The notes under the pieces: generated by a model
Databases searched by the model: none
Seen by the model: only the letters and a program-made list of their open reading frames with translations
What the model was told of the DNA's origin: nothing
Assembly: GCF_030013595.1 (NCBI RefSeq)
Contig: NZ_CP122768.1
DNA length: 64,000 nucleotides
Direction: 5' to 3' (one strand)
From: Escherichia coli
GTDB taxonomy: Bacteria; Pseudomonadota; Gammaproteobacteria; Enterobacterales; Enterobacteriaceae
Translations under genes and position numbers: made by a program
Part shown: in pieces, positions 19,168 to 60,114 of the stretch
Layout: every line of letters begins with the position of its first letter
How positions within the stretch are numbered: the stretch's first letter is position 1

Positions 19168-22100
19168 CTACCGCGTGCTCAGTCGCCCCTGGCTTCTGAG
19201 CACTTCACGGTGCAGGGCGTCACGTGTGAACTCGCTGATGACCTCCCGGTCCAGATTTATCTGCTGGAGATGGCCGCTGCCGTAGTACAGATGACGCTGC
19301 GTTCTGCCGTCCGGAAAGGTGGTGGCTGTCCGGTTGCTGAGTTCATCGTACTGATGGGTCAGGACGCCCTGCGCCGTCTCCTCAGTCAGCATCCGCCCCA
19401 GTCTGTCGTAACTGAAGCGGATAATCTCCGGTGCGTCTGTTTCCCCGGCATCCGACCGTCGGCGGCGGATTTCCAGTAGCTGGTCTGCCGCATCATGGAC
19501 GTATTCCGTACGGCTATCGGCTGTCTCCTTTGCCGTAAGCCGGCCCGCCGCATCACGTGCCAGCCGATGGCGGATTTCACCGCCCCGGTCCCCGGTGAAC
19601 ACCACTTCCGTGACCGCGTTCAGCGCGTTGTAGCGGTACGTCTGGCGGCAGCCGTCCGGATTTATCTGCTCCGCCAGACGGTCCAGCACATCATGGCGGA
19701 ACCGGTAGCTTTCTCCGTTCTCGTTTGTCAGCGTGACCAGACGCCCGTAAGCATCGTACCCGAATGCCGTCCTGCGCCCCGTCGCGTCCGTCCGGCTGCG
19801 CACCCGGCCCTGCCCGTCCCGCTGCCAGCGCGTTATCCTCCCCATCGGGCTGGTGTACTTCACCAGCCTGCCCGCCGCGTCCGACTGGTAATTCACCGTG
19901 CGGCCGTCCGCCAGTATCACCTCCGTCAGGTGGCCGCTGTCGTCATACCCGTAGCGCGTGCTGTGGCTCTGCGCGTCTGTCATCCGTATCAGCCGCGTGC
20001 GTTCGTCGTAGAACCAGGCCGTCTGCGAGCCGGAACAGTCCGTGTGCCGCATGAGCTGCCCGTCTTCGTTCCACTGAAGGTATTTATTCCCCCCGCGCGC
20101 ATCGGTTATCTGCACCACCTGGCCGTGGCGGTCATACTGATACCGGGTGTTCTGCTGCAGCGGGTCGGTCACCGCAAGAAGATTGCCGCGTTCATCGTAC
20201 TCACAGCACCAGCTGTTCCCCGCCGCGTCCACCTCCGTTTCCGGCTGGTGCCACACCGGGTGCCACTGTGTCTGTGCCACCCGCCCCAGCGGGTCGTGCG
20301 TCTCCGTGATATGCCCCTGCCGGTCATACACATAGCGCCATTTGCCGCCCTGCGCATCGGTCATTCCCAGTAACAGCCGTTCTTCGTCGCTCCAGCGGAA
20401 CGTCGTCACCTGCCCGGCTTCGTCCTGGTACGCCGTCACCTGGTTCTGCGCGTCCCACTGATGATAACGCGTGCGCCCCAGCCCGTCCGTCACGCACAGC
20501 CTGCGTGACGCCAGGCTCCACGCCAGCCGGTACTGTTCACCGCTGTCCGTGTGGTGCCCCGTCACCCGCCACGCTGCGTCATCCGGGCCTTCATACCAGC
20601 CCCACTGGTAATAATACCCTTCGCCGCCCGGCTGGCGGTGCAGGGTCATGCAGTGGTTTTCGTCGTAAGCAAACTCGCGCAGCAGGTGTCCCGTGCTGTC
20701 GTACACGCCGTTCAGGTCGCCGGCCTCGTCATAGCGGTAACGACGCAGCAGTAAAGGAGCCGTCTCAGGGAAATGCTGATAAATCTGTGTCACCCGCCGG
20801 GGATGCGCCGCCAGTTCATAATGCAGACGGATGCACGGACGCTGCTGTTCACCGCTGATTTGCGTGATGCGCCCCAGCTCGTCGTAGTACAGATTCAGAC
20901 AGTTGCTGTTGCGGTCGCCCAGCATTTTCAGCCGCTGGCGCTGCGGGTGATGCGGGTCGGCCTCAAACAGAAAAAACTGCCCGTCATCGCTGCTGATAAG
21001 CCAGTGCCCCTGCTCACCCCGCCTTACCGCCAGTCCTTCGCCGGGGCTGTAAAACCCGCTCCCCGGCAGCACGGCCTCCATATCCAGGCGTCGTCCCATG
21101 CCCGACACAAAGGTCATACAGTTTTCGTCAGCAGTACCCGGCGTGCGCTCGAGGCTGACTTCATACATCACGCTCCAGCCCTGCCCGAACATCCCTTCCG
21201 TGCGGTCGTCACGACTGCTGTACACGCGCTGCCAGTCCAGCGGAAAGTGGCCCGGCAGACTGAAATCGAAGTCATCGTCATCCGCCAGATATTTGGCTCC
21301 GGTGGCGGCATTGACCGGATGCGGAAGGGCACTGATGGCCTTCTGCGTCATCACCCCCATCCCGACACTGGCAGCAAAACAGGCGATTTTAGAAAGCATT
21401 TTGCCCGGGCGAAGAAACATCAGCGCCACAGTTGCCACCAGGGTTATCTGCGACCTGCCGCTTCTGATATCCCTGACCACCAGTAACGGACCGCCAATGC
21501 GGACATCCGGTGACACAAACGCCCCGTTCCCCGGCTCATTCACCACCCAGGCCTCGCAGGTGCAGCGTGCCCCGCTGCGTGCCGCCGGCTGGCTGTTGAT
21601 ACGCACATCCCGCGCGCCTTCCGCGATATATTCCGCTGCGGGCGGTTCATCATCGCCTTTGAACAGATTACTGATGCTGCCAATAACCGCATTCACTCCC
21701 TGAAAGGCGGTTTCCAGCATACCGCCCGGACTCAGCAGGTTAAGGGCCGTTCCCAGAGGGTCATCCAGAAAGGCGGCTTTTTTTTGTGCGAGAAACTGCG
21801 TCAGTGAGGAGGGATGTTTATGGCAGTCGATTTTATCGTCAGGGGTCGGGGTGGAGCCCGGGGCCGCACTGGCCACGGTGGGCTGCCATAGTTCCGACAC
21901 AAAATGTGTCACGCCATCCACCATTTCAGAACGCCCTTCTTCCGTACTGAGCTGGTCATGCAGCGCCCGGGACATCAGCACAGGCCCTGTCACCGGGTTA
22001 ACCGCCAGGGCTATGGCCCCCGCCATTTCCAGATATTCCCCGGCCACATCCCGGAACGTTCTGGCGTCCTCCTGACGCTGCGCTTCTTCCTGTTCCGCCT

Positions 22101-22503
22101 TCGCCTGTGCCTCCTGCGCCTCAATGTCCTGCCGCGATGCCGCAGTCGCCGCTGCCCGCGCGGCAGGTTTGCTGTTGATCCATGTGTCGCCAGAGCCGGT
22201 GAGGATGTAACCTTCAATCTGAGGCGGGAAAAGCATATTTGCGAGGTCTGAACAGACTTCGCTGACCTTTTCTGTCACGCCGGTGTACACCATCGCCACA
22301 CCCGCCACAAAACCGGTCAGCACGACGGCCGTGCACCCCATAGTGATCCCCGCTGACGTCGCCAGTAACGAGGTTGTGCCGACAATGAGGGCATCAATAA
22401 CGACATTTGCGGCCACCTCCAGCACCGCCCCCAGCACATCTGCCATAAACGACGTATGCAGCAGGGCATCACCCTGCCTTGCCGCCCAGAATGCCTCTTC
22501 CAT
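19168..22503 (-). CDS. prePAAR/PAAR-Rhs effector, N-terminal 1111 codons, terminated by an in-frame TAG at 19165-19167
   Basis: N-terminal AARQGDALLH (AARxxDxxxH prePAAR motif), hydrophobic segments, SKPAARA / SQPAARSG PAAR-like motifs, many YDxxGR repeats. Confidence 0.8.
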   Translation of the reverse strand: MEEAFWAARQGDALLHTSFMADVLGAVLEVAANVVIDALIVGTTSLLATSAGITMGCTAVVLTGFVAGVAMVYTGVTEKVSEVCSDLANMLFPPQIEGYILTGSGDTWINSKPAARAAATAASRQDIEAQEAQAKAEQEEAQRQEDARTFRDVAGEYLEMAGAIALAVNPVTGPVLMSRALHDQLSTEEGRSEMVDGVTHFVSELWQPTVASAAPGSTPTPDDKIDCHKHPSSLTQFLAQKKAAFLDDPLGTALNLLSPGGMLETAFQGVNAVIGSISNLFKGDDEPPAAEYIAEGARDVRINSQPAARSGARCTCEAWVVNEPGNGAFVSPDVRIGGPLLVVRDIRSGRSQITLVATVALMFLRPGKMLSKIACFAASVGMGVMTQKAISALPHPVNAATGAKYLADDDDFDFSLPGHFPLDWQRVYSSRDDRTEGMFGQGWSVMYEVSLERTPGTADENCMTFVSGMGRRLDMEAVLPGSGFYSPGEGLAVRRGEQGHWLISSDDGQFFLFEADPHHPQRQRLKMLGDRNSNCLNLYYDELGRITQISGEQQRPCIRLHYELAAHPRRVTQIYQHFPETAPLLLRRYRYDEAGDLNGVYDSTGHLLREFAYDENHCMTLHRQPGGEGYYYQWGWYEGPDDAAWRVTGHHTDSGEQYRLAWSLASRRLCVTDGLGRTRYHQWDAQNQVTAYQDEAGQVTTFRWSDEERLLLGMTDAQGGKWRYVYDRQGHITETHDPLGRVAQTQWHPVWHQPETEVDAAGNSWCCEYDERGNLLAVTDPLQQNTRYQYDRHGQVVQITDARGGNKYLQWNEDGQLMRHTDCSGSQTAWFYDERTRLIRMTDAQSHSTRYGYDDSGHLTEVILADGRTVNYQSDAAGRLVKYTSPMGRITRWQRDGQGRVRSRTDATGRRTAFGYDAYGRLVTLTNENGESYRFRHDVLDRLAEQINPDGCRQTYRYNALNAVTEVVFTGDRGGEIRHRLARDAAGRLTAKETADSRTEYVHDAADQLLEIRRRRSDAGETDAPEIIRFSYDRLGRMLTEETAQGVLTHQYDELSNRTATTFPDGRTQRHLYYGSGHLQQINLDREVISEFTRDALHREVLRSQGRLSTR

Positions 22504-34195: not shown

Positions 34196-34711
34196 ATGTC
34201 CATCCGTTTTGCCCGCAAAGCCGACTGTGCTGCCATTGCGGAAATTTATAACCACGCCGTGTTGTATACGGCGGCTATCTGGAATGACCAAACGGTGGAT
34301 GCAGATAACCGCATTGCCTGGTTCGAAGCGCGGACTTTAGCTGGTTATCCGGTGCTGGTGAGTGAACAAGATGGCGTAGTGACGGGATATGCCTCGTTTG
34401 GCGACTGGCGTAGTTTCGATGGTTTTCGCCATACCGTGGAACATTCGGTTTATGTCCATCCCGATCATCAGGGCAAAGGTCTGGGGCGTAAATTGTTAAG
34501 CCGATTGATTGATGAAGCGCGGGATTGCGGGAAGCATGTCATGGTCGCCGGGATCGAATCGCAAAACCAGGCTTCGCTGCATCTCCACCAGTCGCTGGGA
34601 TTTGTCGTCACCGCGCAAATGCCGCAGGTAGGCACTAAATTTGGGCGCTGGCTGGATCTGACATTTATGCAGTTGCAACTCGACGAACGCAGTGAACCGG
34701 ACGCAATCTGA
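34196..34711 (+). CDS. mnaT: GNAT N-acyltransferase MnaT (YncA)
   Basis: 171 aa; GNAT motifs (HPDHQGKGLGRKLL). Confidence 0.8.
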   Translation: MSIRFARKADCAAIAEIYNHAVLYTAAIWNDQTVDADNRIAWFEARTLAGYPVLVSEQDGVVTGYASFGDWRSFDGFRHTVEHSVYVHPDHQGKGLGRKLLSRLIDEARDCGKHVMVAGIESQNQASLHLHQSLGFVVTAQMPQVGTKFGRWLDLTFMQLQLDERSEPDAI

Positions 34712-35160
34712 TGAATCAGTCGCTTACCCTTGCCTTTTTGATTGCCGCCGGGATTGGTCTGGTAGTCCAAAACACGCTGATGGTGCGCATCACTCAGATC
34801 TCCTCAACCATTCTCATCGCCATGTTGCTGAACTCTTTGGTAGGAATTGTGCTGTTCGTTTCTATTTTATGGTTTAAACAAGGCATGGCGGGGTTTGGCG
34901 AACTGGTGTCCAGCGTGCGCTGGTGGACACTTATACCTGGCTTGCTGGGATCGTTTTTTGTCTTCGCCAGTATCAGCGGATATCAGAATGTGGGAGCGGC
35001 GACAACTATTGCGGTACTGGTCGCCAGCCAGCTGATTGGCGGTCTGGTGCTGGATATCTTCCGCAGCCATGGCGTACCACTACGGGCGTTGATCGGCCCA
35101 ATTTGTGGCGCAATTTTACTTGTGGTTGGTGCCTGGCTGGTGGCCAGGCGCACATTTTAA
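34711..35160 (+). CDS. ydcZ: YdcZ inner-membrane protein (DUF606-like)
   Basis: 149 aa, hydrophobic; start overlaps mnaT stop. Confidence 0.8.
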   Translation: MNQSLTLAFLIAAGIGLVVQNTLMVRITQISSTILIAMLLNSLVGIVLFVSILWFKQGMAGFGELVSSVRWWTLIPGLLGSFFVFASISGYQNVGAATTIAVLVASQLIGGLVLDIFRSHGVPLRALIGPICGAILLVVGAWLVARRTF

Positions 35161-35394
35161 TCAGAGGATGGTGCCACCTTTGGTTAACTGTTCGTGGCGC
35201 GCTTCCATATCTTCTTTATGCTTGCGACCGTGATGGGCGATCGCTGTGCGCAGACGCTGCTGCTGGGTGTAGCGATCTTCCCGACTTAACTCCGCGTCAT
35301 CGCTCAGGGCGATTAATAATTCGTTCATATGGGCAATGACGCTCTCTTCAATCGCGGCATCCACGCGCGCGATGACTTCATCCAGATGCGACAT
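35161..35394 (-). CDS. ydcY: YdcY small protein
   Basis: 77 aa MSHLDEVIARVDAAIEESV... Confidence 0.75.
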   Translation of the reverse strand: MSHLDEVIARVDAAIEESVIAHMNELLIALSDDAELSREDRYTQQQRLRTAIAHHGRKHKEDMEARHEQLTKGGTIL

Positions 35395-35479
35395 ACTTTC
35401 TCCTTAGCCACTTGTGAAATTTATCGATTCATCCAAATGATATAAGTCTGCGTGGTGCCGTCAAGCCAGTGAGTAAGAT

Positions 35480-35653
35480 TTAAAACAGTGAAAACAACAG
35501 CGCCACCGGGAAACTCATCGGCCATGTTGCCCCCACCAGAAAGGCGCTTAAGAAACGGATGCGTTTCTTATCGTGAGAAAGAAACCAGGTGATAAGAAAT
35601 GCGATTGCTGCCATAACCGCATAAAAAACAAGCATGTGTTGATAGAGAGACAT
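35480..35653 (-). CDS. ortT: Small membrane toxin OrtT (YdcX)
   Basis: 57 aa MSLYQHMLVFYAVMAAIAFLITWFLSHDKKRIRFLSAFLVGATWPMSFPVALLFSLF; track ORF is extended upstream. Confidence 0.7.
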   Translation of the reverse strand: MSLYQHMLVFYAVMAAIAFLITWFLSHDKKRIRFLSAFLVGATWPMSFPVALLFSLF

Positions 35654-36343
35654 GTACGGGCGTCCAGCCAGATGAATAAAACGCGCGCAAATATGCGTCA
35701 TTTTTTGATGTGCATCAAGTTTTTTCACCAGTTTGAGAAAAAATCATCAACAGCAACTTGCCCTTATCCATCTTCAGAATAAGTATTATTGCGGATTTTC
35801 TTAACCCGTACTATACACATAGGGGCAATGATAAAAGGTGGCAAAAATGAATGTTTCCAGTAGAACCGTAGTACTGATAAATGTCTTTGCTGCTGTTGGT
35901 TTGTTTACTCTTATCTCTATGAGATTTGGCTGGTTTATTTGATGTAGTGATTTTGCACGCAGCACGTACTGTCAGAGAAATCAGTGCTCTGACAGTACGC
36001 AAGATCATCTCATACTCTCCAGGTTTACAACATTATCCTTAATATTTACTTCTTTTTCCTGACATCTACATTGAAATAAGTAGAAAACATCCCCCTCCTG
36101 TCGTCTATACAGACAGCTTACTGATTCAAAGGGAACCTTGTTTTCACATTTTTCTATCATCAATACTTTAGACGCGCGGGAGTCTATAAATGCTTTATAC
36201 TTTCAGGGAATAAAGTAAATATAAAAAGATGGCGTAAAGTATATGCATGGCAGGATGATTGCAACCTCCTTGATGACGCTGTCCCATTGAAATTGCAAAC
36301 CCCGCACTGGTTATCTTGCCCATTTATCATGCAGAACAGATAA

Positions 36344-37153
36344 TTATAGGTCTCTAAATATCTCAGAAAGATTGAATTTTTTATAGTCCATCTCTTGAAT
36401 ATTTCCATTTGATATCAATCGATTCATCTCTTCAACAAAATAATTTATATCATCACATTTGTTATTATCCGGAAGATCTGAGTAATTATAATTCCACCAC
36501 TTTATTCTCAACAATTCATCAATAACATTTGAATCAAATCTAAATCTGATTATTTTTGCTGGAACTCCTGCAACTATGGCATATGGGGGCACATCTTTGG
36601 TAACAACGGAATTGGCAGCAATAACAGCACCATCACCTATTGCGATGCCACCTTTCAGTACAACATCATTTCCTATCCAGACATCATTTCCTATAATCGG
36701 ATTTTCAGGTTTGGTAATGAATGGTTTCAATGTCCAGCTACGTTCAAACTCACTCTTAGCAAACTTATCAAATTCACCGTTATAAGTCATCATGTGAGTA
36801 GTAAAACGATTCAAAGGATGATTTCCACCCATTATTTTTACATTTGATGCAATACTACAAAATCGACCTATATGTATATTCCCTGTAAAATGACAGGTCG
36901 GGAATGAAAAAGCGCCGACACTGGAGAAATTTTTTACAGGCATTGTTGAATATTCTTCAGCAATAACATTATCTTCAATTGTTATCTTGTCACCTTTTGA
37001 GAAAAGAAATAAATTTCTTTCTTTATACGACTTCTTCCCCTTATGATTTAAAAAGATTTTATTATCCATACAAAACTCAAAGTGTTTTTTCGCCCACCTG
37101 AAGGTAAGGGTTTTATTTTTATCTTCCGTGAATTTATACAATTGAACTTTCAT
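36344..37153 (-). CDS. Hexapeptide-repeat (XAT/Vat-like) acetyltransferase
   Basis: IGRFCSIASNVKIMGGNHP...IGNDVWIGNDVVLKGGIAIGDGAVIAANSVVTKDVPPYAIVAGVPAKIIRFRF...WWN resembles streptogramin A acetyltransferases; very AT-rich. Confidence 0.7.
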   Translation of the reverse strand: MKVQLYKFTEDKNKTLTFRWAKKHFEFCMDNKIFLNHKGKKSYKERNLFLFSKGDKITIEDNVIAEEYSTMPVKNFSSVGAFSFPTCHFTGNIHIGRFCSIASNVKIMGGNHPLNRFTTHMMTYNGEFDKFAKSEFERSWTLKPFITKPENPIIGNDVWIGNDVVLKGGIAIGDGAVIAANSVVTKDVPPYAIVAGVPAKIIRFRFDSNVIDELLRIKWWNYNYSDLPDNNKCDDINYFVEEMNRLISNGNIQEMDYKKFNLSEIFRDL

Positions 37154-37375
37154 TGTTAATACTTCTACTTATAAATTATTAGGTTAATAACGATACTCTA
37201 AAGCCTTATGCGAATCAACTATGACAGGATGAAAAATCACCAACATACATTTAGATCATAATAACTGCCTAATTTTTCCGCTAGTTATTAATGTAATCAT
37301 TCTGATACTTAATCACCATTACACTCAGAACCTAAAACGATAGTGGCCGCCCTATAACAGCCACTAACATTTAAC

Positions 37376-38800
37376 TTAATGTTTAACCATGACGTGGCGG
37401 ACGACGGTGTAATCCTCCAGCCCATAAAGTGACATATCCTTGCCGTAACCAGAAAGTTTCTGCCCACCGTGCGGCATTTCACTTACCAGCATGAAATGGG
37501 TATTGACCCAGGTACAACCATATTGTAGCCGTGCGCTGACGCGATGCGCCCTGCCCACATCTTTCGTCCATACCGAAGATGCAAGTCCGTACTGGCTGTC
37601 ATTCGCCCAGTTCACCATCTGTTCTTCGTTGTCGAAGAGCGTAACACTCACTACTGGACCAAATACCTCTTTTTGCACGATGGCATCATCCTGTAATGCG
37701 CCAGCCAGCAGCGTCGGCGCATAGTAATAGCCATTACCCTTGCGCTTTTCACCGCCAGTGATCACTTTGATGTGCCCTGTCGCTTTCGCCTCTTCTACCG
37801 CCTTGCTGACGCGTTCGAGATGCGCCAGCGAACTTAAAGGTCCAAGCTCCGTAGAGTCGTCATCCGGCGCACCCGATTTTAACGTTGCCACTGCAGCACC
37901 AAGTTTTTCCACCAGCGTATCGTAAATGCCTTTTTGCGCATAGATCCGACAAGCCGCTGTACAATCCTGTCCGGCATTGTAATAGCCAAAAGTACGTACA
38001 CCTTCGACCACCGCTTCAATATCCGCATCATCAAAAACTATCACTGGCGCTTTGCCACCAAGTTCCATATGAGTACGCTTTATGGACGGCGCGGTATGGC
38101 TGATGATGTGTTCCCCAGTGGCGATAGAGCCCGTCAGCGACACCATCCGCACTTTGGGATGACCGGTCAGCGGATCGCCCACCGTTTTGCCTCTGCCAAA
38201 CAGTACATTAATCACGCCAGCCGGGAAGATATCTTTCGCCAGCTCTGCCAACTTCAACGCTGTCAGCGGGGTAATTTCTGATGGTTTAAGCACTACGCAG
38301 TTCCCTGCCGCCAGCGCCGGAGCCAGTTTCCACGCAGCCATCATCAGCGGATAATTCCACGGTGCGATAGAAGCCACGACCCCCAACGGATCGCGACGGA
38401 TCATCGAAGTATGACCTTCAAGATATTCACCTGCCGCCAGACCATTCAGGCAGCGAGCTGCTCCGGCGAAAAAGCGAAAGACATCGACAATCGCCGGGAT
38501 TTCATCATTGAACGCACTATGCAGCGGTTTGCCACAGTTACGGGACTCCAGTTCGGCTAAAACCTGACCATTTTCTTCGATAACATCAGCCAGTTTCAGC
38601 AGGCATTCCGCACGCGCTTTCGGCGTGGTTTGCCCCCATTCGGCAAATGCTGCATCTGCCGCGCGAACAGCAGCATCCACCTGTTCTGCGGATGCCTCGG
38701 CAATCTCTAGTAAAACGTCCCCCGTTGCCGGATTATAGACAGGCTGTTTTTCCCCTTCGCCGCTAACCAGTTCTCCGTTAATCAGTAACTTATGTTGCAT
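37376..38800 (-). CDS. patD: Gamma-aminobutyraldehyde dehydrogenase PatD (YdcW)
   Basis: 474 aa [37 protein letters not shown]; aldehyde dehydrogenase family. Confidence 0.9.
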
Positions 38801-42968: not shown

Positions 42969-44375
42969 TTACAGCCGTTCTTGAATAAGTTTGCCTAATT
43001 GTTTAACCGCCTGTTCTTCACGTTCTCCCCACTGCCACGCGGTATTAAAACGGAAAAAACGTGACCAGTTTTCACCGGTAGAAAACATTTTACCCGGCGC
43101 AATACTGATATGATGCGCCAGTGCCGCCAGGCTTAATTCGCCCGCATCTAACGGTTCGGGAAGCTCCAGCCAGAGAAAATAACCGCTGTCATTATGATGA
43201 ATTTTCACTTCCGCAGGCAGATAACGCAGCAGTGCTTGCCAGGCACGTTGTTTACGTTCCGCAAGCTGGCGACGCAGGCGACGAAGATGGGCGTCGTATC
43301 GGCGCGTGGAAAGGTAATCCACCAGAGCAAGCTGCATCGGTGAGCTGGTGGAAAGCGTACTCATCAACTGCAAGCGTTGAATTTTACGTGCATGTTTTCC
43401 GGCGGCGACCCAACCAATACGAAAACCAGGCACCAGACATTTCGAAAACGAAGAGCAATGCAAAACACCATCGTGGTGATCCCACGCTTTCGCAGGCAGC
43501 GGTTTTTCCCGTCCAAAATAAAGTTCGCTGTAAACGTCATCTTCAATCAGCGTTACGTTGTACTGATTGAGCAACGCTACCAGCCGCGCTTTTTTCTGCG
43601 GCGTTAAGGTAAATCCGAGTGGATTCTGGCTATTAGTCATCAGCCAGCACGCTTTCACTGGATACTCCTGCAACGCCAGTTCCAGCGCCTTGAGATCAAT
43701 CCCTTCTTTAACGTCCGTCGCCACCGATAACGCCTTCAGCCGTAACCGCTCCAGCGCCTGCAACGCGCCGTAGAAACAAGGATTCTCTACTATCACCCAA
43801 TCGCCCGGTTCAGTGACCGCTTGTAAACTGAGGTTTAATGCCTCTAACGCCCCGGCGGTAATGACAATTTCATCAGGAGAAATAGTGATGCCCTGTAAGG
43901 CATAGCGACGAGCAATAGCCTGACGCAGTTCTGCGTTTCCTGGCGGTAAGTTTTCAATCACGCTCATCGCCGTGGCGGTTTTGCTTACCTGCGCCAGCGA
44001 GCGGTTTAGTTGTTGGAGGGGGAAAAGTCGCGGGTCGGGAAAGGCCGAGGCAAACGGAACTACCGACGGATCGCGACTGGCCTGCAACATATCAAAAATA
44101 TAGGTGTTGATATCGACTGCTTCATCTCGAGTGACAGGAATGACTGGCGCTTTCGGCATTTTTATTGCCTGTGGCGCAACGTAATAACCCGACTGCGGTC
44201 GAGCGATAATATGTCCCTGACTTTCGAGCAACTGATAGGCATGGCTGACAGTCATAAAGCTCATGCCAGAAAGCGCCACCTGGTCACGCAACGAAGGCAA
44301 ACGATCGCCAGGTTGCCAGATACCCGACGCAATCTGCTCGCGTAATTGTTCTGCAAGCTGCTGGTATTTTTTCAT
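42969..44375 (-). CDS. ydcR: MocR/GntR-family regulator with aminotransferase domain YdcR
   Basis: 468 aa; N-terminal HTH plus PLP-dependent aminotransferase-like domain. Confidence 0.85.
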   Translation of the reverse strand: MKKYQQLAEQLREQIASGIWQPGDRLPSLRDQVALSGMSFMTVSHAYQLLESQGHIIARPQSGYYVAPQAIKMPKAPVIPVTRDEAVDINTYIFDMLQASRDPSVVPFASAFPDPRLFPLQQLNRSLAQVSKTATAMSVIENLPPGNAELRQAIARRYALQGITISPDEIVITAGALEALNLSLQAVTEPGDWVIVENPCFYGALQALERLRLKALSVATDVKEGIDLKALELALQEYPVKACWLMTNSQNPLGFTLTPQKKARLVALLNQYNVTLIEDDVYSELYFGREKPLPAKAWDHHDGVLHCSSFSKCLVPGFRIGWVAAGKHARKIQRLQLMSTLSTSSPMQLALVDYLSTRRYDAHLRRLRRQLAERKQRAWQALLRYLPAEVKIHHNDSGYFLWLELPEPLDAGELSLAALAHHISIAPGKMFSTGENWSRFFRFNTAWQWGEREEQAVKQLGKLIQERL

Positions 44376-44453
44376 TATCGAATCGTAATTATGTGCAGAT
44401 GATTCGGCAGTCTATATCAGTTGTTAAAAATGACAACTTTTCGTTAACTGTAA

Positions 44454-44558
<105 letters not shown>

Positions 44559-44573
44559 TTTAGGTTTCCCTAA

Positions 44574-44579
44574 TATAAT
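44574..44579 (+). promoter_or_regulatory. Candidate -10 hexamer (TATAAT) upstream of the first moron gene
   Basis: Perfect TATAAT about 30 nt upstream of ATG 44610; -35 not convincing. Confidence 0.3.
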
Positions 44580-44609
44580 GCCCCCACAATAACACGAGGG
44601 GGTACAACA

Positions 44610-44996
44610 ATGTTCAATATCATGATTCGTAAATTTGGCGAGATGACTTTCGAGAAAGCTGGTGTTGCTCGTACCGAAGAAGAAGCAATGGCCTTAGTTC
44701 TGGTAGCACTGAGATCATCACCTGAGATTATCGACGCTGAATATGTAGCTGCTGAGGGTGAGATTAAAGAGATTAAAGCGGTGGCTAAGGAATTAGGTGT
44801 TAAAGGTTTCCGTAAGCTGAGATTGAATCGTGAGACTTATGTAATTGGACAGCAAGGACAATACCTAGATGAGAATACCGTGATTGTTCTACTGAATAAG
44901 ATTACCCGCTACGGTTGGAAGATTGAGCAATATAAAACGTGTTTCGAATTATACGAAAAAGGTTTGCTGGATACTCTGACCATCGTTCGCGCTTAA
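44610..44996 (+). CDS. Hypothetical protein, prophage moron
   Basis: 128 aa, strong RBS (gaggggg), own terminator downstream; no family recognised. Confidence 0.6.
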   Translation: MFNIMIRKFGEMTFEKAGVARTEEEAMALVLVALRSSPEIIDAEYVAAEGEIKEIKAVAKELGVKGFRKLRLNRETYVIGQQGQYLDENTVIVLLNKITRYGWKIEQYKTCFELYEKGLLDTLTIVRA

Positions 44997-45010
44997 TTAA
45001 TTTCTAATTT

Positions 45011-45037
45011 GGTGGGTGTAATTCCCACCGCTTTTTA
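45011..45037 (+). terminator. Rho-independent terminator
   Basis: ggtggg tgtaatt cccacc followed by GCTTTTT. Confidence 0.65.
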
Positions 45038-45053
45038 AACTGGAGAATCAAAC

Positions 45054-45134
45054 ATGTTAGCTTTTATCTCATTCGTGGGAGGTAGTCTCACAACTATGAT
45101 TAGTCTTTCTTATCTTGTCGTTAGTATGGGGTGA
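45054..45134 (+). CDS. Small hydrophobic peptide (26 aa)
   Basis: MLAFISFVGGSLTTMISLSYLVVSMG; GGAG RBS; below the ORF-track length cut-off. Confidence 0.3.
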   Translation: MLAFISFVGGSLTTMISLSYLVVSMG

Positions 45135-45137
45135 GCA

Positions 45138-45263
45138 ATGAAACAATTTCATGATGGCATTTCATCTAAGACATTCAAGAAAGAATATAGCGGATTGTGT
45201 ATTAACTGGATTGATTTGATTGGTGCGGTTGTGTTTGGTCTGGTAATTAGCATCAATTTTTAA
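45138..45263 (+). CDS. Small membrane peptide (41 aa) with C-terminal TM segment
   Basis: MKQFHDGISSKTFKKEYSGLCINWIDLIGAVVFGLVISINF; starts 3 nt after the previous small ORF. Confidence 0.35.
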   Translation: MKQFHDGISSKTFKKEYSGLCINWIDLIGAVVFGLVISINF

Positions 45264-45304
45264 CGATATAAATATATCGTAATTCATTCAAAGAGGATTC
45301 AATT

Positions 45305-45646
45305 ATGAAAAAGACTATCTACGCAATTATTGTTTCTGTGTGTGTTGGTGGCATCGGTGGATTTGTTTGTGGGTATGACTATTCCGATACTCAACATCAA
45401 GAGACTATCCGGTCAAATAAGGCCGAGATTAAGGATCTGAATCAGGAGATTAGCCAGTTAGAAAATGCTCTCTCACTCAAAGACAGTGAATATAGCGAGG
45501 TTTATGCAGATAAACAAAAATATTGGAAAGAGAAAGATAATCTCGTTGTTTACGGGATGAAATTGTGTAAGAGCATGAAGGACGAGCGCAGTTGTTTAAT
45601 GGAACTTGCCCTTAAAGGTAACGTGACCATCGACTTCAAAGACTAA
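45305..45646 (+). CDS. Membrane-anchored coiled-coil protein
   Basis: N-terminal TM (IYAIIVSVCVGGIGGFVCG) then coiled-coil-like region; AGAGGA RBS. Confidence 0.55.
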   Translation: MKKTIYAIIVSVCVGGIGGFVCGYDYSDTQHQETIRSNKAEIKDLNQEISQLENALSLKDSEYSEVYADKQKYWKEKDNLVVYGMKLCKSMKDERSCLMELALKGNVTIDFKD

Positions 45647-45675
45647 TTAATTCAAATAACAAAGAGGATTCTATT

Positions 45676-45921
45676 ATGAAAAAGATTATCGCTGGTATCG
45701 TTCTTGCTCTGGGTTTGGTTGGTGCTGCAAATGCCGAACAATATGTACAGGGTGATAGTGTCAAGCGTGCTGCCGTTGCACCTTCTTTAAATCAACTGTG
45801 TACTGAATTAGCACAGGTTGCCGGAGTTGGTGACGATGACGACTTTATTACTGCGTGTGTGTGGAGTCATATCGAGGATATTAATAAACGTGATGCAAAA
45901 CTAACTGGAAAGAAATATTAA
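45676..45921 (+). CDS. Small secreted protein (signal peptide, two Cys)
   Basis: MKKIIAGIVLALGLVGAANA/EQY...; RBS context near-identical to the previous gene. Confidence 0.55.
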   Translation: MKKIIAGIVLALGLVGAANAEQYVQGDSVKRAAVAPSLNQLCTELAQVAGVGDDDDFITACVWSHIEDINKRDAKLTGKKY

Positions 45922-45932
45922 TGACTTACTAA

Positions 45933-45975
45933 CCAATGCCCCTATCGTTATAATACACGGTAGGGGCGTTTTTGT
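45933..45975 (+). terminator. Rho-independent terminator before the recombinase gene
   Basis: ccccta ... tagggg stem followed by CGTTTTTGTTTGG. Confidence 0.55.
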
Positions 45976-45986
45976 TTGGAAATGGT

Positions 45987-47666
45987 ATGAAAACTAAACT
46001 ATATTCGTATATTCGCTTCTCGTCTATGCGTCAGAATGATGGTTCGAGTTATGAACGGCAAATCAGGATGGCGAGAGAGGTTGCGGCAAAGTATGACCTT
46101 GAACTGGTAAATGATTATCAGGATCTGGGTGTATCTGCGTTTAAGGGTGCTAACTCTAAAACAGGGGCGCTATCTCGTTTCCTTGATGCAATTGGTAGAT
46201 CCGTTCCTGTTGGTAGCTGGCTATTCATTGAAAACTTGGACCGCTTATCCCGTGCCGATATTGTCAGTGCGCAGGAGTTATTCCTTTCAATCATCCGTAG
46301 GGGAATAACCATTGTTACTGGCATGGATAACAAGATCTACTCGCTGGATACTGTTACCGCTAATCCGATGGACCTGATGTTCTCCATCCTTCTATTCATC
46401 CGTGGTAATGAGGAAAGTCAGACTAAGCGCAATCGTACTAACTCAAGCGCATTGATTAAGATTAAAGCTCATCAAGAAAATCCCCAGAATCCGGCAGTGG
46501 CAATCGAGGAAGTTGGAAAGAATATGTGGTGGACTGATACCACATCTGGTTATGTGCTTCCTCATCCGGTCTTCTTCCCTATTGTTCAGGAAGTTGTGGA
46601 ATTACGCAGGAATGGACGGTCAACCGCCGAGATACTGGATCACCTTAACGCGACATACACACCACCACCAGCCGCAAGTCACAAGAGGCATTCAAACTGG
46701 TCACGGGCAATGATTGAAAGGTTGTTCCATACCCGCGCTTTGATTGGTATCAAGGAAATCTCTGTAGATGGCGTTAAGTATGAGTTAAAGGATTATTATC
46801 CTCGTGTGCTAGATGACGCTGAGTTTTATCACCTTAAGAAAAGCATTGGTGTTAGAGCATGTAACTATGGAGACAAGGAAGAAGTTAAACCGATCCCCCT
46901 GCTTAGTGGTGTTAATCTGCTGAAATGTGATCATTGCGGTTCCGCTATGGTTAAGGTGAAAGGAACAAACAGACGGCCTAACCAATATCGTTATTCATGC
47001 GATGCAATGCGCTCTAGTCGTATTGAATGTGTGCATACAAACTGGAGTTTTCGCGGCGACCAATTAGAGAAAGCTGTATTGCAATTGCTGGCTGATAAAA
47101 TCTGGATTGCTGAAGATAAGGCTAATCCGGTTCCGGCTTTGAAAGTACAGATTGATGAAATATCACGCAAGATTGATAACCTGATTGCCCTTTCTGCTAT
47201 GACAGGAGCAACGAAGGAGCTAGCCGATCAGATTACTACCCTCAATAGCGAGCGTGAAACACTCTACAATCAGATCAAGATGGCAGAAGAGGAAATGTAT
47301 TCTGTGGACTCTCAAGGCTGGGAGAAGCTCGCAGAATTTGATTTAGAAGATGTTTACAACGAGGATCGCATTAAGGTCCGGTTTAAGATTAAGCAAGCTC
47401 TAAAACGGATCGGGTGTAGCAGGATTGACAAGTACAAAAACTTGTTTGTACTGGAATACATCGATGGCAAGACCCAGAGAGTTGTAATAGAAAATTCAAG
47501 AGGACCGAGGAAAGGCCGGATCTTCGTTGATTTGAAGACTATCAATGATAGGCAGATTCTGGAGAGTAACGGGCTTGTTCTGCATCCATGTTTAGACATG
47601 CTGACAGATAAGAACTGGAAACCAGAAGAGGAAATACCAGGTCCATTACAGGAATTTGGAATTTAA
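45987..47666 (+). CDS. Large serine recombinase (probable prophage integrase)
   Basis: ATG at 45987 (track start 45972 is TTG); N-terminal resolvase catalytic region (LYSYIRFSSMRQ), zinc-ribbon-like Cys cluster, C-terminal coiled coil. Confidence 0.8.
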   Translation: MKTKLYSYIRFSSMRQNDGSSYERQIRMAREVAAKYDLELVNDYQDLGVSAFKGANSKTGALSRFLDAIGRSVPVGSWLFIENLDRLSRADIVSAQELFLSIIRRGITIVTGMDNKIYSLDTVTANPMDLMFSILLFIRGNEESQTKRNRTNSSALIKIKAHQENPQNPAVAIEEVGKNMWWTDTTSGYVLPHPVFFPIVQEVVELRRNGRSTAEILDHLNATYTPPPAASHKRHSNWSRAMIERLFHTRALIGIKEISVDGVKYELKDYYPRVLDDAEFYHLKKSIGVRACNYGDKEEVKPIPLLSGVNLLKCDHCGSAMVKVKGTNRRPNQYRYSCDAMRSSRIECVHTNWSFRGDQLEKAVLQLLADKIWIAEDKANPVPALKVQIDEISRKIDNLIALSAMTGATKELADQITTLNSERETLYNQIKMAEEEMYSVDSQGWEKLAEFDLEDVYNEDRIKVRFKIKQALKRIGCSRIDKYKNLFVLEYIDGKTQRVVIENSRGPRKGRIFVDLKTINDRQILESNGLVLHPCLDMLTDKNWKPEEEIPGPLQEFGI

Positions 47667-47703
47667 GCGGCCTAAATCGACGTATAACGAGCTAAAACAG
47701 TTA

Positions 47704-47727
47704 AGGGGTACAGATGTACCCCTTTTT
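47704..47727 (+). terminator. Rho-independent terminator after the recombinase gene
   Basis: aggggtac agat gtacccct followed by TTTTT. Confidence 0.75.
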
Positions 47728-48245
47728 AATTTAATTGCGTTAGGCAGCGTAAGCAAGTTTCATAGTAGTTTCCTCTAAAATAATAAGTTCACTACTATTT
47801 ATCAGAGAAAATTGTCTTACTATTGCATTCTCTATCTGGATGTGGGTATAGGCGGGATTGAATACGGCAAAACTGAAACATTCCACTACTGCAATAAATC
47901 ACTAAACAATATAAAGAATATTGCAAGTGTGGAGTGGAACTAATGCAAGATATTAAAATTCATTTTCAAGATTACAGTTTCGTTAAGGTTGATTGCTCTC
48001 CTTCTATCGGAATGGAATTAAGAGATTATTTCTCGTTTGAGGTTGAAGGGGCTAGGTTTAGCCCCCGTTACAAGTATTCTGGCTGGGATGGACGAATAAG
48101 ACTGTTTACGCATGAAAACACCCTACCAATTGGACTATTAAAAACGTTGGGTGTCTTCGTTAAAAATATGGGCTATTCAGTCTGGATTGACCCCAGATTG
48201 CTTGAGAAGGAAGATGTAACCAAAGACGCGATTAATGAATGGATT

Positions 48246-48254
48246 GATTCCTTA
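48246..48254. repeat. IS1 target-site duplication, left copy (gattcctta)
   Basis: Identical 9-mer at 49022-49030. Confidence 0.85.
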
Positions 48255-48309
48255 GGTGATGCTGCCAACTTACTGATTTAGTGTATGATGGTGTTTTTGA
48301 GGTGCTCCA

Positions 48310-48585
48310 GTGGCTTCTGTTTCTATCAGCTGTCCCTCCTGTTCAGCTACTGACGGGGTGGTGCGTAACGGCAAAAGCACCGCCGGACATCAGCGCTATC
48401 TCTGCTCTCACTGCCGTAAAACATGGCAACTACAGTTCACTTACGCCGCCTCTCAGCCCGGTACGCACCAGAAAATCATTGATATGGCCATGAATGGCGT
48501 CGGATGTCGCGCCAGTGCACGCATTATTGGCGTTGGCCTCAACACGATTTTCCGCCACTTAAAAAACTCAGGCCGCAGTCGGTAA
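48310..48585 (+). CDS. insA: IS1 InsA
   Basis: [43 protein letters not shown]. Confidence 0.9.
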
Positions 48586-49007
48586 CCTCGCGCATACAAC
48601 CGGGCAGTGATGTGATTGTCTGCGCTGAAATGGACGAACAGTGGGGCTACGTCGGTGCTAAATCACGTCAGCGCTGGCTGTTTTACGCGTATGACAGGAT
48701 GCGGAGGACGGTTGTGGCGCACGTCTTCGGTGAACGCACTCTGGCCACACTGGAGCGTCTTCTGAGCCTGCTGTCGGCCTTTGAGGTCGTGGTATGGATG
48801 ACGGATGGCTGGCCGCTGTATGAATCACGCCTGAAGGGAAAGCTGCACGTTATCAGCAAGCGTTATACTCAGCGCATTGAGCGGCATAACCTGAATCTGA
48901 GACAACATCTGGCAAGGCTGGGACGGAAGTCACTGTCGTTCTCAAAATCGGTGGAGCTGCATGACAAGGTCATCGGGCATTATCTGAACATAAAACACTA
49001 TCAGTAA
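48504..49007 (+). CDS. insB: IS1 InsB reading frame (expressed as InsAB by frameshift)
   Basis: Overlaps insA in the -1 frame; IS1 transposase C-terminal portion. Confidence 0.85.
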
Positions 49008-49021
49008 GTTGGAGTCATTAC

Positions 49022-49030
49022 CGATTCCTT
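49022..49030. repeat. IS1 target-site duplication, right copy (gattcctta)
   Basis: Identical 9-mer at 48246-48254. Confidence 0.85.
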
Positions 49031-50211
49031 AGAAGTGTATTCCGGTAGCAATAAAATCAATCCTTATTGGTATCAAAGGGAGGCAGTCTTTCAGGGTATC
49101 CACAATCGCCGTAGAATGCTGGTTCTTCCTACCAGTGCCGGAAAGTCATTGATTGCTTGTATGCTGTCTCGTTGGTACTTAGAGAACTACACCGGAAAAG
49201 TGTTAATCATTGTTCCGACTACATCGCTAGTGGTTCAAATGAGGGATGATTTCATCGATTATAGGCTATTCCCTTATGAAGCAATTCATACAATGATGAG
49301 TGGTAGCGGGAAACATCCGGGAGACAGGTTAATCACGGTTAGTACCTGGCAATCAGCTTGCAAGATGCCTCCTGAATGGTTCCGACAATATGGAATGTTG
49401 ATAGTTGATGAATCGCATAAGGCTAGTGCCAAAAATATTACCAATATCATCAATGGAATGAATCATTGCCAATTTAAGATCGGCATGACTGGTTCCCCGA
49501 AAGAATCAAAGTGCCATTTAATGCAGTATGTCGGGCTTTTCGGTGATATTTCTAAGATCGTGAGTATTGACCGCCTGATGGAAGAAGGGCAGGTGACAAA
49601 ACTGAAAATTAACTGTCTTTTCCTTCGTTATACAGATGAGGAATGTAGCGCGGTTAAGGGGCGAGAATATGCGGAAGAGATCAAGTATATTACGTCTAAC
49701 CCACGACGAAATAAGTTTGCTTGTAATTTGGCGCTAAAACTAGCTAAGAAGGGCGAAAACGTATTCCTGATGTTCCGCAATACTAAGCACGGAAAACTTA
49801 TGTATGATGCGTTACAGAAGGTACACGACAAGGTTTATTATATTGACGGTGGAGTTAAGACAGAAGAACGTGATGAATTTAAGAAAATGGCGGAGGGTGA
49901 CACCGGGATCATTTGCGTTGCATCCTATGGTGTGTTCTCTACTGGTGTTTCAATTAAGAATTTGCATCATGTTATTTTCGGTCATCCAGTGAAGGAATCA
50001 ACTATCGTTCGTCAGAGTATCGGTCGTGCATTGCGTAAACATGGTTCTAAGGATATTGCAACGGTCTGGGATCTTATAGATCATCTGTGTATATTCGGTC
50101 GTAACGGAAAAGTCAAGCATAAAAATTATGCGGTAAAACATGCACTTGAGAGAATCCGCTATTATCTAACCGACAAGTTCAGCTATGCAACTAAAACAAT
50201 TGCTATATAAC

Positions 50212-50244
50212 AAAAAAGCGCCCACTAGAGGCGCTTTAATTTTA
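50212..50244. terminator. Bidirectional hairpin terminator between the convergent helicase and M15 peptidase genes
   Basis: aagcgcc cactaga ggcgctt, A-run upstream and T-rich downstream. Confidence 0.6.
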
Positions 50245-50595
50245 TCCATTCCATCGTGATTTTTTCGATCTGGAATCGATATGCGTAAAGGTTTTATATT
50301 TGCCTAAGCCGTATTGAGTAGGATATTTCCCATCAAGATAAGCATGGACAATATCAGGGGAGACACCCTTGATCACAATGTCAGCCGCACGGCCTCGAAC
50401 GTGATAGCTGTTGGTTGCACCGCCTACATTCTTGTTATGAGTCGGGCAACGGTTGCCACTGTTAATAATCACTGGTTTACCGAAGTGCTCTCGTACATCC
50501 TCAAGAATTACCAGTAATTCAGCGTCGATTGTATCATAATCACATTTTCCGCATTTACATTTAAATTCCTTGCGAGAAAAATGCTTACTTAACAT
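50242..50595 (-). CDS. Peptidase M15-family (zinc D-Ala-D-Ala carboxypeptidase fold) protein, possible phage cell-wall hydrolase
   Basis: 117 aa with SYHVRGRAADI and HxH-type motif; GGGGG RBS. Confidence 0.6.
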   Translation of the reverse strand: MLSKHFSRKEFKCKCGKCDYDTIDAELLVILEDVREHFGKPVIINSGNRCPTHNKNVGGATNSYHVRGRAADIVIKGVSPDIVHAYLDGKYPTQYGLGKYKTFTHIDSRSKKSRWNG

Positions 50596-50604
50596 ATTAC
50601 CCCC

Positions 50605-50952
50605 TTAGATCATTTCGAAGATATAACCAATAAAGCGCATACCCTTGATATAATAAGGAGCAGTGCCTACACACACCGCGCGTGCATCGCCCAGACAGTT
50701 AAAGCTATAAGGATTAACTACATCGACTTCTTGCCCTACACGAAAACGATATTTAGGACGTTTAGCCAATGTAGCGACACAAAACACGGTCCCTTTTTCA
50801 TGATCGCGGATACATTCTTTATATTGTTTATGTTTAACTCTCTTCGCCTCAAAATCATGTGTCATGGATTCTGGGCTAATGCCATTGATAAAAATACCGG
50901 AAAGCTGGTCGACCGGATAAGTAGGAAATTCAGTAAAAATATTTTTAGCCAT
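50605..50952 (-). CDS. Hypothetical phage protein
   Basis: 115 aa, GGGGG RBS, no recognisable family. Confidence 0.5.
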   Translation of the reverse strand: MAKNIFTEFPTYPVDQLSGIFINGISPESMTHDFEAKRVKHKQYKECIRDHEKGTVFCVATLAKRPKYRFRVGQEVDVVNPYSFNCLGDARAVCVGTAPYYIKGMRFIGYIFEMI

Positions 50953-50990
50953 GTTATACCCCCATAAGATTCTATGAGGGTATTTATTGA

Positions 50991-51674
50991 TTAAACGTAT
51001 TTCATGCGCGATTTAATGTGCTTATTGATGTTTTCAAGCATCATTGCTTCGTTGCTTTCCCACGATCCTAGCGTCGAATAACGAGTAGAAATTTTATCCG
51101 ACTTAACGGCAACAATTCGCTTACTCTGTTTCTGTATGCGTTTCTCTAAGCGACGTTTTGCCACCGCCGATCCATTCTTAGCGCGTTTGGTTCGGGATTT
51201 CTTAGGCTTGTACTTCTTCATGATAAAAGTCCCTTCCTGGTTCTCTACCTTGATGAAGTTGCCATTTTCGATGTTACGCATCATCTTACCGCCTTTGATG
51301 GCCTTAATGTTCCCGTGGGCGTCTAAGACCTTACCGTTGGCAATTGGCACTAGCTTATTGATTTTGCCACCATCGAAATAGTGTTTCAGATAGTCATCCT
51401 GACTGCCGATCTTCTTGTCCTTATCCCTTGCGCCCTTGATGAAGATTTGGTGTCTCGTCCCTGAACGGTTCTTGTAGTTGGTATTACCTACAGCTTGTTG
51501 AGTCCAGCGAGTAGGTCTATCAACATTCTTGTTAATCTTCTTCTGGAGTGCTCTGGAAGCAAAGATCGCCCCTTCCCCTATCGCCTTTTCGAATGTATCG
51601 GTTGCTTTATCAGACCATTGGCGTAACGCTTTCTTAGTCCTTAGAGCGTTTCGTTTATTGGTACTGGTTGCCAT
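50991..51674 (-). CDS. Highly basic hypothetical phage protein
   Basis: 227 aa, Lys/Arg-rich C-terminal half; GGGGG RBS. Confidence 0.5.
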   Translation of the reverse strand: MATSTNKRNALRTKKALRQWSDKATDTFEKAIGEGAIFASRALQKKINKNVDRPTRWTQQAVGNTNYKNRSGTRHQIFIKGARDKDKKIGSQDDYLKHYFDGGKINKLVPIANGKVLDAHGNIKAIKGGKMMRNIENGNFIKVENQEGTFIMKKYKPKKSRTKRAKNGSAVAKRRLEKRIQKQSKRIVAVKSDKISTRYSTLGSWESNEAMMLENINKHIKSRMKYV

Positions 51675-51675
51675 G

Positions 51676-51846
51676 TTAGCCCCCTAATAACGAAAAGACC
51701 CCCGCCAGTGTCCTTAGCAATTGTTCATCCACGGTCATAGCCGGGAGTTCAAGCCCAAAGGACGTTAGCAGAGGTCTAATTGCTACGTTATAAGTGAGGG
51801 CGACAATCAAGAGATAACCAAAATATTTCTTAAGTTTATTCTTCAT
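51676..51846 (-). CDS. Small membrane protein (56 aa)
   Basis: ATG at 51846 with GGGGTG RBS (track start is TTG); one TM segment. Confidence 0.4.
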   Translation of the reverse strand: MKNKLKKYFGYLLIVALTYNVAIRPLLTSFGLELPAMTVDEQLLRTLAGVFSLLGG

Positions 51847-51865
51847 ATATTCACCCCTTTTATTA

Positions 51866-52144
51866 TTATTTTTGTCTGAGTAAATCGATAACTTGGTCAA
51901 ATTTAGCGTCCATCGCAACCACTTTCTTTTCTATACCGTGAAGGGTTTGTTCCATGCGATAAACTCTCTCGGCGATCTGGTCGTGGTTATTCTGCATTGT
52001 TTCAAACTTCTGATTAAACAATGCATCATTGGACTCTAATTTCGACAATCTATTTTCTGTGGCTAATTGATTTCGGTGAAGTCTCCATAATCCACCACAA
52101 ATTAAGGCGATAACACCGATACCGCCATATATAATTTCAGTCAT
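51866..52144 (-). CDS. Membrane-anchored coiled-coil protein, holin/spanin-like by architecture
   Basis: N-terminal TM (IIYGGIGVIALICGGLW) then coiled coil. Confidence 0.45.
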   Translation of the reverse strand: MTEIIYGGIGVIALICGGLWRLHRNQLATENRLSKLESNDALFNQKFETMQNNHDQIAERVYRMEQTLHGIEKKVVAMDAKFDQVIDLLRQK

Positions 52145-52249
52145 TACGCCCCCGATATTTTTATATAGTTTAATGGCAAAATTATTTAGATAAAAATAAT
52201 CCCGCCTAACTCAAAAGAATTAAGCGGGATTTATTATTAAAATTAAATT

Positions 52250-60111: not shown

Positions 60112-60114
60112 AAA

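Follow-up and report, generated by a model that had tools for sequence, protein, structure and literature searches.

The window analyzed here, a 64,000-nucleotide stretch of Escherichia coli DNA (contig NZ_CP122768.1 of RefSeq assembly GCF_030013595.1), carries an AT-rich islet with a single protein-coding gene between two conserved flanking genes: yncL (35847–35942, + strand) on the left and patD, encoding γ-aminobutyraldehyde dehydrogenase (37376–38800, − strand), on the right. The islet gene (36344–37153, − strand) is an ATG-to-stop open reading frame (ORF) of 32.6% GC; its 269-residue product is an O-acetyltransferase of the xenobiotic acetyltransferase (XAT) class with a left-handed β-helix (LbH) fold, and the identical RefSeq protein, WP_000867994.1, is named "CatB-related O-acetyltransferase" and placed between yncL and patD. 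A preliminary description of this DNA had read the gene as a Vat-like, streptogramin-type acetyltransferase; the comparisons presented here give a modest preference to an enzyme that acetylates a sugar of a glycoconjugate. The generic RefSeq annotation of the gene and its fold class are already known; a literature search for accession WP_000867994, in which papers using the RefSeq product name were judged by title and abstract, returned no paper naming the accession.

In 300-nt windows, GC content is 0.28–0.38 at approximately 35650–37350 and 0.50–0.57 in patD and beyond, so that the gene and its flanks are AT-rich relative to patD, as the preliminary description had it; it was also right that E. 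coli K-12 MG1655 has no gene at this locus, where the spacing between patD and yncL is only 96 bp. The boundaries it gave need correction: the span 35730–37350 also takes in yncL, which is the islet's actual neighbor rather than ortT, and the inserted DNA, ~1.3 kb in length, extends from approximately 36020/36049 to 37375. The left junction (36020–36048, + strand) is a degenerate copy (22 of 30 positions identical) of the stretch leading up to and including the 3′ end of patD in empty-site strains, and it contains the repeat CTTAATATTTA; the right junction (37366–37385, + strand) overlaps the patD stop codon and holds the direct-repeat partner AACATTTAACTTAATGTTTA, which is paired with AACATTATCCTTAATATTTA at 36029–36048. 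An origin of the islet as a transposon or insertion sequence (IS) was considered and rejected: there are no inverted terminal repeats and no transposase, and the junctions offer only this 11–20-bp imperfect direct repeat.

Upstream of the acetyltransferase gene lies a region of 28–31% GC (37154–37340, − strand) that presumably holds the gene's own promoter. The promoter assignment is weak: the one σ70-like match, at 37202–37175, is a weak one, and the promoter-like matches number 7 against 7.6 expected from shuffled sequence. The ~80 bp that precede the start codon are conserved together with the gene at the locus of a Citrobacter homologue. Immediately past the patD stop codon, and within the islet, a GC-rich, terminator-like hairpin is followed by a T-run (37341–37366, − strand); it probably shields the acetyltransferase gene from patD read-through. 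The 3′ part of the islet (36049–36343, no strand assigned; ~37% GC) is non-coding: no part of it is homologous to the Citrobacter or Cedecea homologue loci, RefSeq annotates no gene there, and an Rfam scan of 35300–37500 at E ≤ 1 matched nothing. Just past yncL, a perfect 13-bp inverted repeat (CGTACTGTCAGAG / CTCTGACAGTACG) with a 9-nt loop occupies 35965–35999. In empty-site strains this hairpin sits between the convergent yncL and patD and is probably their common terminator; in islet strains patD has instead a hairpin of its own, at 37366–37341.

DNA homology to the Citrobacter locus is limited to the gene and the ~80 bp upstream of it (window positions 36355–37234), and in Citrobacter, Cedecea, Kluyvera and Dickeya the homologous gene has 33–38% GC amid surroundings of 45–52% GC, which argues for a moron-like cassette drawn from a low-GC source; in Providencia the GC content of the homologue agrees with the local 36%. 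The best explanation of the islet is a single-gene, moron-like cassette that comprises an upstream region of its own, the acetyltransferase gene and a terminator-like hairpin serving the neighboring patD.

Membership of the product in the XAT class, with its LbH fold, is secure, and here the preliminary description was sound: all the motifs it quoted are found in the translation (IGRFCSI, GGNHP, IGNDVWIGNDV...GDGAVIAANSVVTKDVPPY, KWWNY), and the nearest relatives of solved structure are Vat(D) (E = 2.5e-29, residues 61–230), Vat(A) and CatB proteins. In Pfam only hexapeptide repeats are matched (Hexapep, E = 1.8e-9). A structure predicted with AlphaFold (AF2) from a 38-sequence alignment (pLDDT 89) was compared with solved structures by Foldseek, and the top 50 Protein Data Bank (PDB) matches were all Vat, CatB, PaXAT or ApmA (probability 1.00), with query-normalized TM-scores of 0.37–0.50 that are low because ~80 residues have no counterpart. 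His112 aligns with the catalytic His82 of VatD (VatA His87) and is invariant in all 38 family members and all 111 XATs sampled; the two tryptophans of the WW motif (W219 and W220) are invariant in the family, and W159 (VatD W121) and S100 (VatD S68) are kept. Family-specific extensions lie at the N-terminus (residues ~1–60) and C-terminus (~222–269). Relative to Vat(D), the N-terminal extension amounts to ~33 residues (query residue 61 aligns with VatD residue 28), not the ~80 first proposed, and a C-terminal extension of ~22 residues had been overlooked. PADLOC defense models gave no match with the E. coli, Campylobacter, Pectobacterium or Providencia proteins.

Fold class and catalytic histidine are as far as the Vat-like reading holds; family scores, the antibiotic-site loop and the tree grouping all speak against it. 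Against the Vat family model (NF000311) the protein scores 125.5 bits (cut-off 300), against the individual Vat(A–I) models 92–113 bits (cut-offs 400–475), against the CatB model (NF000490) 105.7 bits (cut-off 350) and against the ApmA model (NF000084) 81 bits (cut-off 550), all below the curated cut-offs. The top NCBIfam match, TIGR03308 (phosphonate-cluster hexapeptide transferase), reaches 131.6 bits (cut-off 201.65). Campylobacter jejuni Orf11, a characterized sialate enzyme used as control, gives the same sub-threshold pattern (TIGR03308 110, Vat 100 and CatB 92 bits), hence matches of this size say nothing about an antibiotic substrate. By BLASTP the E. coli protein scores 103–111 bits to three Vat proteins and 99 to CatB3.

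A VatD fragment-screen preprint places D39, Y52, Y54, L57, N92, L93, P103 and L108/P109 in or beside the antibiotic site of that enzyme. In a multiple sequence alignment, rather than a structure superposition, VatD residues 39–59, with D39, Y52, Y54 and L57, fall in a gap of the E. coli protein and N92 and L93 have no counterpart, while P103, L108 and P109 align with F, I and T. Vat(A) and Vat(D) resemble the protein in fold class and catalytic histidine, with ~35–38% identity over residues 61–230 and the best PDB matches, but the E. coli protein lacks the Vat loop and has a longer internal loop as well as extra N- and C-terminal extensions. CatB and PaXAT share the XAT fold, the catalytic histidine and the WW motif; the E. 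coli protein differs from CatB in reading WWxY rather than WWxW at this motif and in its long tail and, unlike CatB genes, its gene was not found in integron cassettes or on plasmids. ApmA is of similar length (274 residues), belongs to the XAT class and also has an N-terminal extension, but its Foldseek TM-scores (0.37–0.41) lie below those of Vat and CatB, and neither its 82-residue N-terminal domain nor its short C-terminal tail has an equivalent in the extensions of the E. coli protein; an ApmA-like reading of the N-terminal extension was rejected on the 81-bit score, on a match limited to ApmA residues 109–257 and on these TM-scores. A neighbor-joining tree was built from 111 XAT-class proteins (189 columns, 100 bootstraps), its background diversity coming from at least the matches listed in a contig scan, mostly generic short XATs, rather than from a census. 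The E. coli protein and C. jejuni Orf11 were split from all Vat and CatB references in 100 of 100 bootstraps, a result that indicates exclusion from the Vat/CatB group rather than specific sisterhood with Orf11, and grouping with VatD away from Orf11 and CatB, or with CatB3, occurred in 0 of 100.

It is on this evidence that a genuine xenobiotic or antibiotic O-acetyltransferase, one that inactivates a hydroxyl-bearing compound (streptogramin A-like, chloramphenicol-like or another natural product) and serves as a silent or intrinsic resistance determinant, has to be judged. By sequence and by fold, the solved structures that match best are Vat(D), Vat(A) and CatB, the catalytic histidine, W159 and S100 are conserved, and chromosomal XAT resistance genes are typically stand-alone, monocistronic and horizontally acquired, as this one is; the scores nevertheless fall far under the Vat, CatB and ApmA cut-offs, the protein lacks the loop of the Vat antibiotic site, no bootstrap joins the protein to Vat or CatB, and a proven sugar acetyltransferase yields the same sub-threshold scores. 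A collection of 72,556 plasmid records held no close homologue on a true plasmid (the sole match, at 99.6%, is a 4.9-Mb record that is evidently a chromosome), and a collection of 50,697 phage records held no close homologue. E. coli is intrinsically insensitive to streptogramins, so that selection for such an activity is hard to see. An antibiotic substrate is accordingly unlikely, streptogramin A and chloramphenicol being less likely acceptors than a glycan, and the sequence comparisons suggest that the protein is probably not a streptogramin or chloramphenicol resistance enzyme.

A different set of relatives matches the protein more closely. BLASTP scores are 140–169 bits to the Campylobacter Orf11 clade and 165 and 132 bits to homologues from the lipopolysaccharide (LPS) core loci of Vibrio bivalvicida (L021) and another Vibrio sp. 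(L031), respectively. When the enterobacterial family was aligned with the Campylobacter clade by hhalign, E. coli residues 17–267 matched Orf11 residues 5–266 (probability 100, E = 3.8e-62), with both terminal extensions included. Members of this "long" XAT clade have in common an N-terminal β-α extension, a tail of at least 42 residues past the WW motif, and a set of clade-typical residues. The tail of the E. coli protein is 47 residues long, compared with a clade minimum of 42 (mid-value ~49) and a mid-value of ~27 for other XATs among the values listed, and all five clade-typical residues (E66, R97, R116, Y222 and D226) are present. No curated model exists for the Orf11/SOAT-like long clade; by these sequence features the E. 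coli protein is assigned to it, distinct from Vat and CatB. Full-length homologues of 46–79% identity occur in Citrobacter, Cedecea, Providencia, Kluyvera, Apirhabdus, Pectobacterium, Rahnella, Dickeya and Brenneria, and homologues of ~36–42% identity in Firmicutes, Vibrio, Campylobacter and others. Within the clade, some proteins from Campylobacter and Helicobacter (P0137, P0141, P0143, P0144 and P0151; L022 8013–9269) are 370–420 residues long and have, besides the acetyltransferase part, an extra domain (Pfam PF28160).

The only biochemically characterized member of the long clade that we found is C. jejuni Orf11, described as a demonstrated sialate 9-O-acetyltransferase in papers that cite the original work (Houliston et al., 2006, as cited in PMC8319020, PMC3513307, and PMC2174954). 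Orf11 shares with the E. coli protein the XAT-type LbH core, the catalytic histidine, the N-terminal β-α extension and a tail of ~47–50 residues past the WW motif, with 38–39% identity over residues 66–269 but weak N-terminal sequence similarity; because identity is no higher than this, acceptor specificity cannot be transferred from one to the other. The two also differ in setting: Orf11 is co-transcribed with cst and neuBCA, and its acceptor (terminal α-2,8/2,3 sialic acid) is made by the products of its neighbors, whereas in E. coli the gene stands alone as an orphan, and none of its neighbors is a sialylation gene.

The genomic contexts of relatives, which come in part from a contig scan and represent a few contexts among the matches listed rather than a census, place several clade members in loci for surface glycans. 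In C. jejuni, P0127 holds the orf11 position of a class A/B lipooligosaccharide (LOS) locus (cgtA, GT2, cst, neuB, neuC, neuA, P0127, GT2, GT9), and C. lari P0107 overlaps neuA in a cst-neuBCA sialylation operon. The V. bivalvicida homologue lies among genes for WaaA (548 bits, above the cut-off), a 3-deoxy-D-manno-octulosonic acid (Kdo) kinase (KdkA) and heptosyltransferase-like proteins, and that of a second Vibrio species adjoins ADP-heptose epimerase-like and heptosyltransferase-like genes, both of these being readings by eye of N-terminal sequence. In Pectobacterium brasiliense, P0051 (50% identity) belongs to the waa locus, with a WaaI-like gene on one side and WaaA/CoaD on the other; its neighbors encode a 3-α-galactosyltransferase (476.8 bits, cut-off 461), WaaA (861.7 bits, cut-off 590) and CoaD, and a formamidopyrimidine glycosylase (MutM-type) gene, called by Pfam, stands at the end of the locus.

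Other relatives are cargo of prophages or other mobile elements. Providencia rettgeri P0033 (56%) is found in two different prophages, after tail genes and divergent from a GT52 glycosyltransferase gene; these prophages (L009 4785–7721 and L010 4785–7721) have in common a cargo module of three genes, for the GT52 protein, the XAT homologue and a 250-residue protein with a hydrophobic N-terminus, and the module neighbors DarT/NADAR genes in one prophage and reverse transcriptase, ATPase (retron-like) and integrase genes in the other. Kluyvera P0037 (53%) directly follows P2-like tail-fiber and assembly genes, and Dickeya P0067 is beside primase and Sf6-type terminase genes. P0032 (56% identity; L109 4630–6786) is immediately downstream of icd, the 3′ end of which is the attachment site of prophage e14 in E. 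coli K-12, and this position may mark a phage remnant. In E. coli, Citrobacter, Cedecea/Enterobacter sp. Ag1, Rahnella and Apirhabdus the gene is an orphan among unrelated neighbors. In Rahnella, Cedecea and Enterobacter sp. Ag1 (L006, L011, and L019), a gene for a methyl-accepting chemotaxis protein lies directly upstream of the homologue and in the same orientation, which may be coincidence or a shared insertion hotspot.

We therefore favor, with a probability of roughly 55%, a moron-like, orphan O-acetyltransferase of the long clade that acts on a sugar hydroxyl of a glycoconjugate, with the LPS core as leading candidate acceptor. The preliminary description had named membership of a sugar O-acetyltransferase clade as the alternative to its own reading, and it is largely to such a clade that the protein's sequence and architecture and the genomic settings of its relatives point. 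The enzyme would be cytoplasmic and acetyl-CoA-dependent and, by analogy with solved XATs, presumably a trimer with acetyl-CoA bound at the subunit interfaces. His112 would act as general base, deprotonating the acceptor hydroxyl so that the acetyl group is moved onto the sugar, in a pocket that may be shaped by the clade-specific extensions, and the acceptor would be a glycoconjugate whose assembly takes place at the inner membrane, on the side facing the cytoplasm: the LPS core or a similar lipid-linked oligosaccharide. The core leads because clade members are found in core or LOS loci in three independent lineages and because carriers of the islet among the listed strains differ in O serogroup (O104, O111). 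More tentatively, a subset of E. coli that includes O104:H4 and O111 strains might employ this orphan enzyme, derived from a phage moron, to O-acetylate a conserved surface glycan on an LPS-core residue, possibly an ulosonic acid such as Kdo, a candidate suggested by the association of the clade with sialic-acid and Kdo-pathway loci and by the clade-specific Arg116 near the catalytic histidine. A functional analogy is provided by NeuO, the polysialic acid O-acetyltransferase of E. coli K1 encoded by prophage CUS-3, an acetyl-CoA-dependent LbH enzyme that modifies a surface glycan and is prophage cargo, as are relatives of the islet gene; NeuO belongs to another LbH subfamily, however, its match being ~55 residues of generic hexapeptide repeat (E = 3e-10), and the islet gene has no phase-variable repeat.

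Several points weigh against this reading. No glycosyltransferase, sialic-acid or LPS gene stands beside the E. coli gene, which is flanked only by yncL and patD, and the loci of its closest homologues in Citrobacter, Cedecea, Rahnella and Apirhabdus likewise have no such glycan genes adjacent; the argument from context is thus borrowed from relatives at 38–56% identity. The tree excludes the protein from Vat and CatB without establishing Orf11 as its specific sister, and the solved structures that come closest to the model are all XATs that modify antibiotics. We know of no O-acetylated E. coli core structure that has been reported, and the differing O serogroups of the listed carriers make a single O-unit an unlikely acceptor.

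An alternative is an acceptor that is not part of a glycoconjugate, namely a free cytoplasmic sugar or metabolite acetylated for detoxification or export, after the manner of LacA and Maa or of the TIGR03308 family. TIGR03308 is the top NCBIfam match, LacA, Maa and WbbJ models match the C-terminal repeats, the stand-alone position beside metabolic and transport genes would fit, and Orf11 takes soluble oligosaccharide analogues in vitro. Membership in TIGR03308 was nevertheless rejected, as the score is below the cut-off and there are no phn genes nearby; the LacA and Maa matches span only ~50 residues of generic hexapeptide repeat, and the LPS-locus and tail-fiber-adjacent positions of relatives point to surface glycans. 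We regard a free sugar or metabolite as a decidedly unlikely substrate.

Whatever its acceptor, the gene is an accessory one. The region 35400–37500 is covered to at least 80% in 1154 of 5426 complete E. coli genomes, the remainder having the empty yncL–patD site. The islet alone (36049–37375) is present in 1158 genomes, nearly always as a single chromosomal copy, and falls into two main alleles. That of the window is carried at ≥99% identity by 180 genomes; the second (~95.3% identity) is the prevailing one in the 95–99% band, which holds 941 genomes, O104:H4 and O111:H8 strains included. The junctions are identical in both alleles, which indicates descent from one event. Between the two alleles 23 of 810 coding sites differ, with a synonymous divergence (dS) of 0.10, a nonsynonymous divergence (dN) of 0.012 and a dN/dS of 0.12. 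For the same pair of strains the dS of patD is 0.109, and between the O104:H4 strain and an empty-site strain it is 0.015. The allele dS thus matches that of patD. These values indicate that the islet is old in the species and has been kept by purifying selection, and that its presence and absence have been reshuffled among locus haplotypes. The whole locus haplotype of the window strain (34700–38800) is unusually diverged, patD dS being 0.11 relative to both the O104:H4 strain and the empty-site strain, and ydcZ dS 0.19.

The low dN/dS between alleles and the invariance of His112 across the family are evidence that the gene is functional, and the great majority of carriers have an undisrupted ORF; the 90% identity cluster of the protein has 3523 member sequences. 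Loss of the islet is ongoing: IS1 insertions split the acetyltransferase gene in some strains, two of them chicken isolates (hits H62 and H67), and in strain cM2a (L107 1501–2600) an IS1-associated deletion has removed the gene and left the first 191 bp of the islet beside IS1. A decaying, H-NS-silenced phage-moron remnant without present function in E. coli is very improbable, since the extremely AT-rich upstream region, the absence of the gene from 79% of genomes, the IS1 events and the prophage-cargo status of relatives, all of which would suit it, are set against so large a body of intact sequences and a divergence that indicates long-term purifying selection.

Elsewhere in the window, ~20 kb at 44000–64000 are of 41–46% GC and prophage-like, with a serine-recombinase-like ORF that has a weak XisF-family match (45972–47666) and a 1258-residue protein that matches the lambda tail-tip protein J at its C-terminus (52250–56026); this segment starts ~7 kb from the islet and has no evident link to it. 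A 1111-residue ORF with RHS core and YD-repeat matches (19168–22503) lies in a block of 60–61% GC, with AT-rich stretches near it at 16–18 kb (39% GC) and 1–4 kb (34–39% GC), and is probably an Rhs element with an AT-rich tip.

What the analysis usefully yields is a transfer of the "Vat-like resistance gene" to the Orf11/LPS-locus type of glycan O-acetyltransferase, favored here at the odds given above, on a moron-like islet. A false lead is thereby removed: resemblance in motifs alone should not make this gene a streptogramin or chloramphenicol resistance determinant. The RefSeq label "CatB-related O-acetyltransferase" covers many proteins, and the long clade among them is better seen as glycan-modifying, because it includes members in LOS and LPS loci and next to prophage tail-fiber genes. 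If the LPS core or another common glycan is indeed acetylated in ~21% of strains, among them enterohemorrhagic and enteroaggregative E. coli lineages, the islet would represent a previously unrecognized, strain-variable LPS modification that could alter recognition by phages, serum and antibodies, and a cheaply testable source of surface variation relevant to phage therapy, serology and host interaction.

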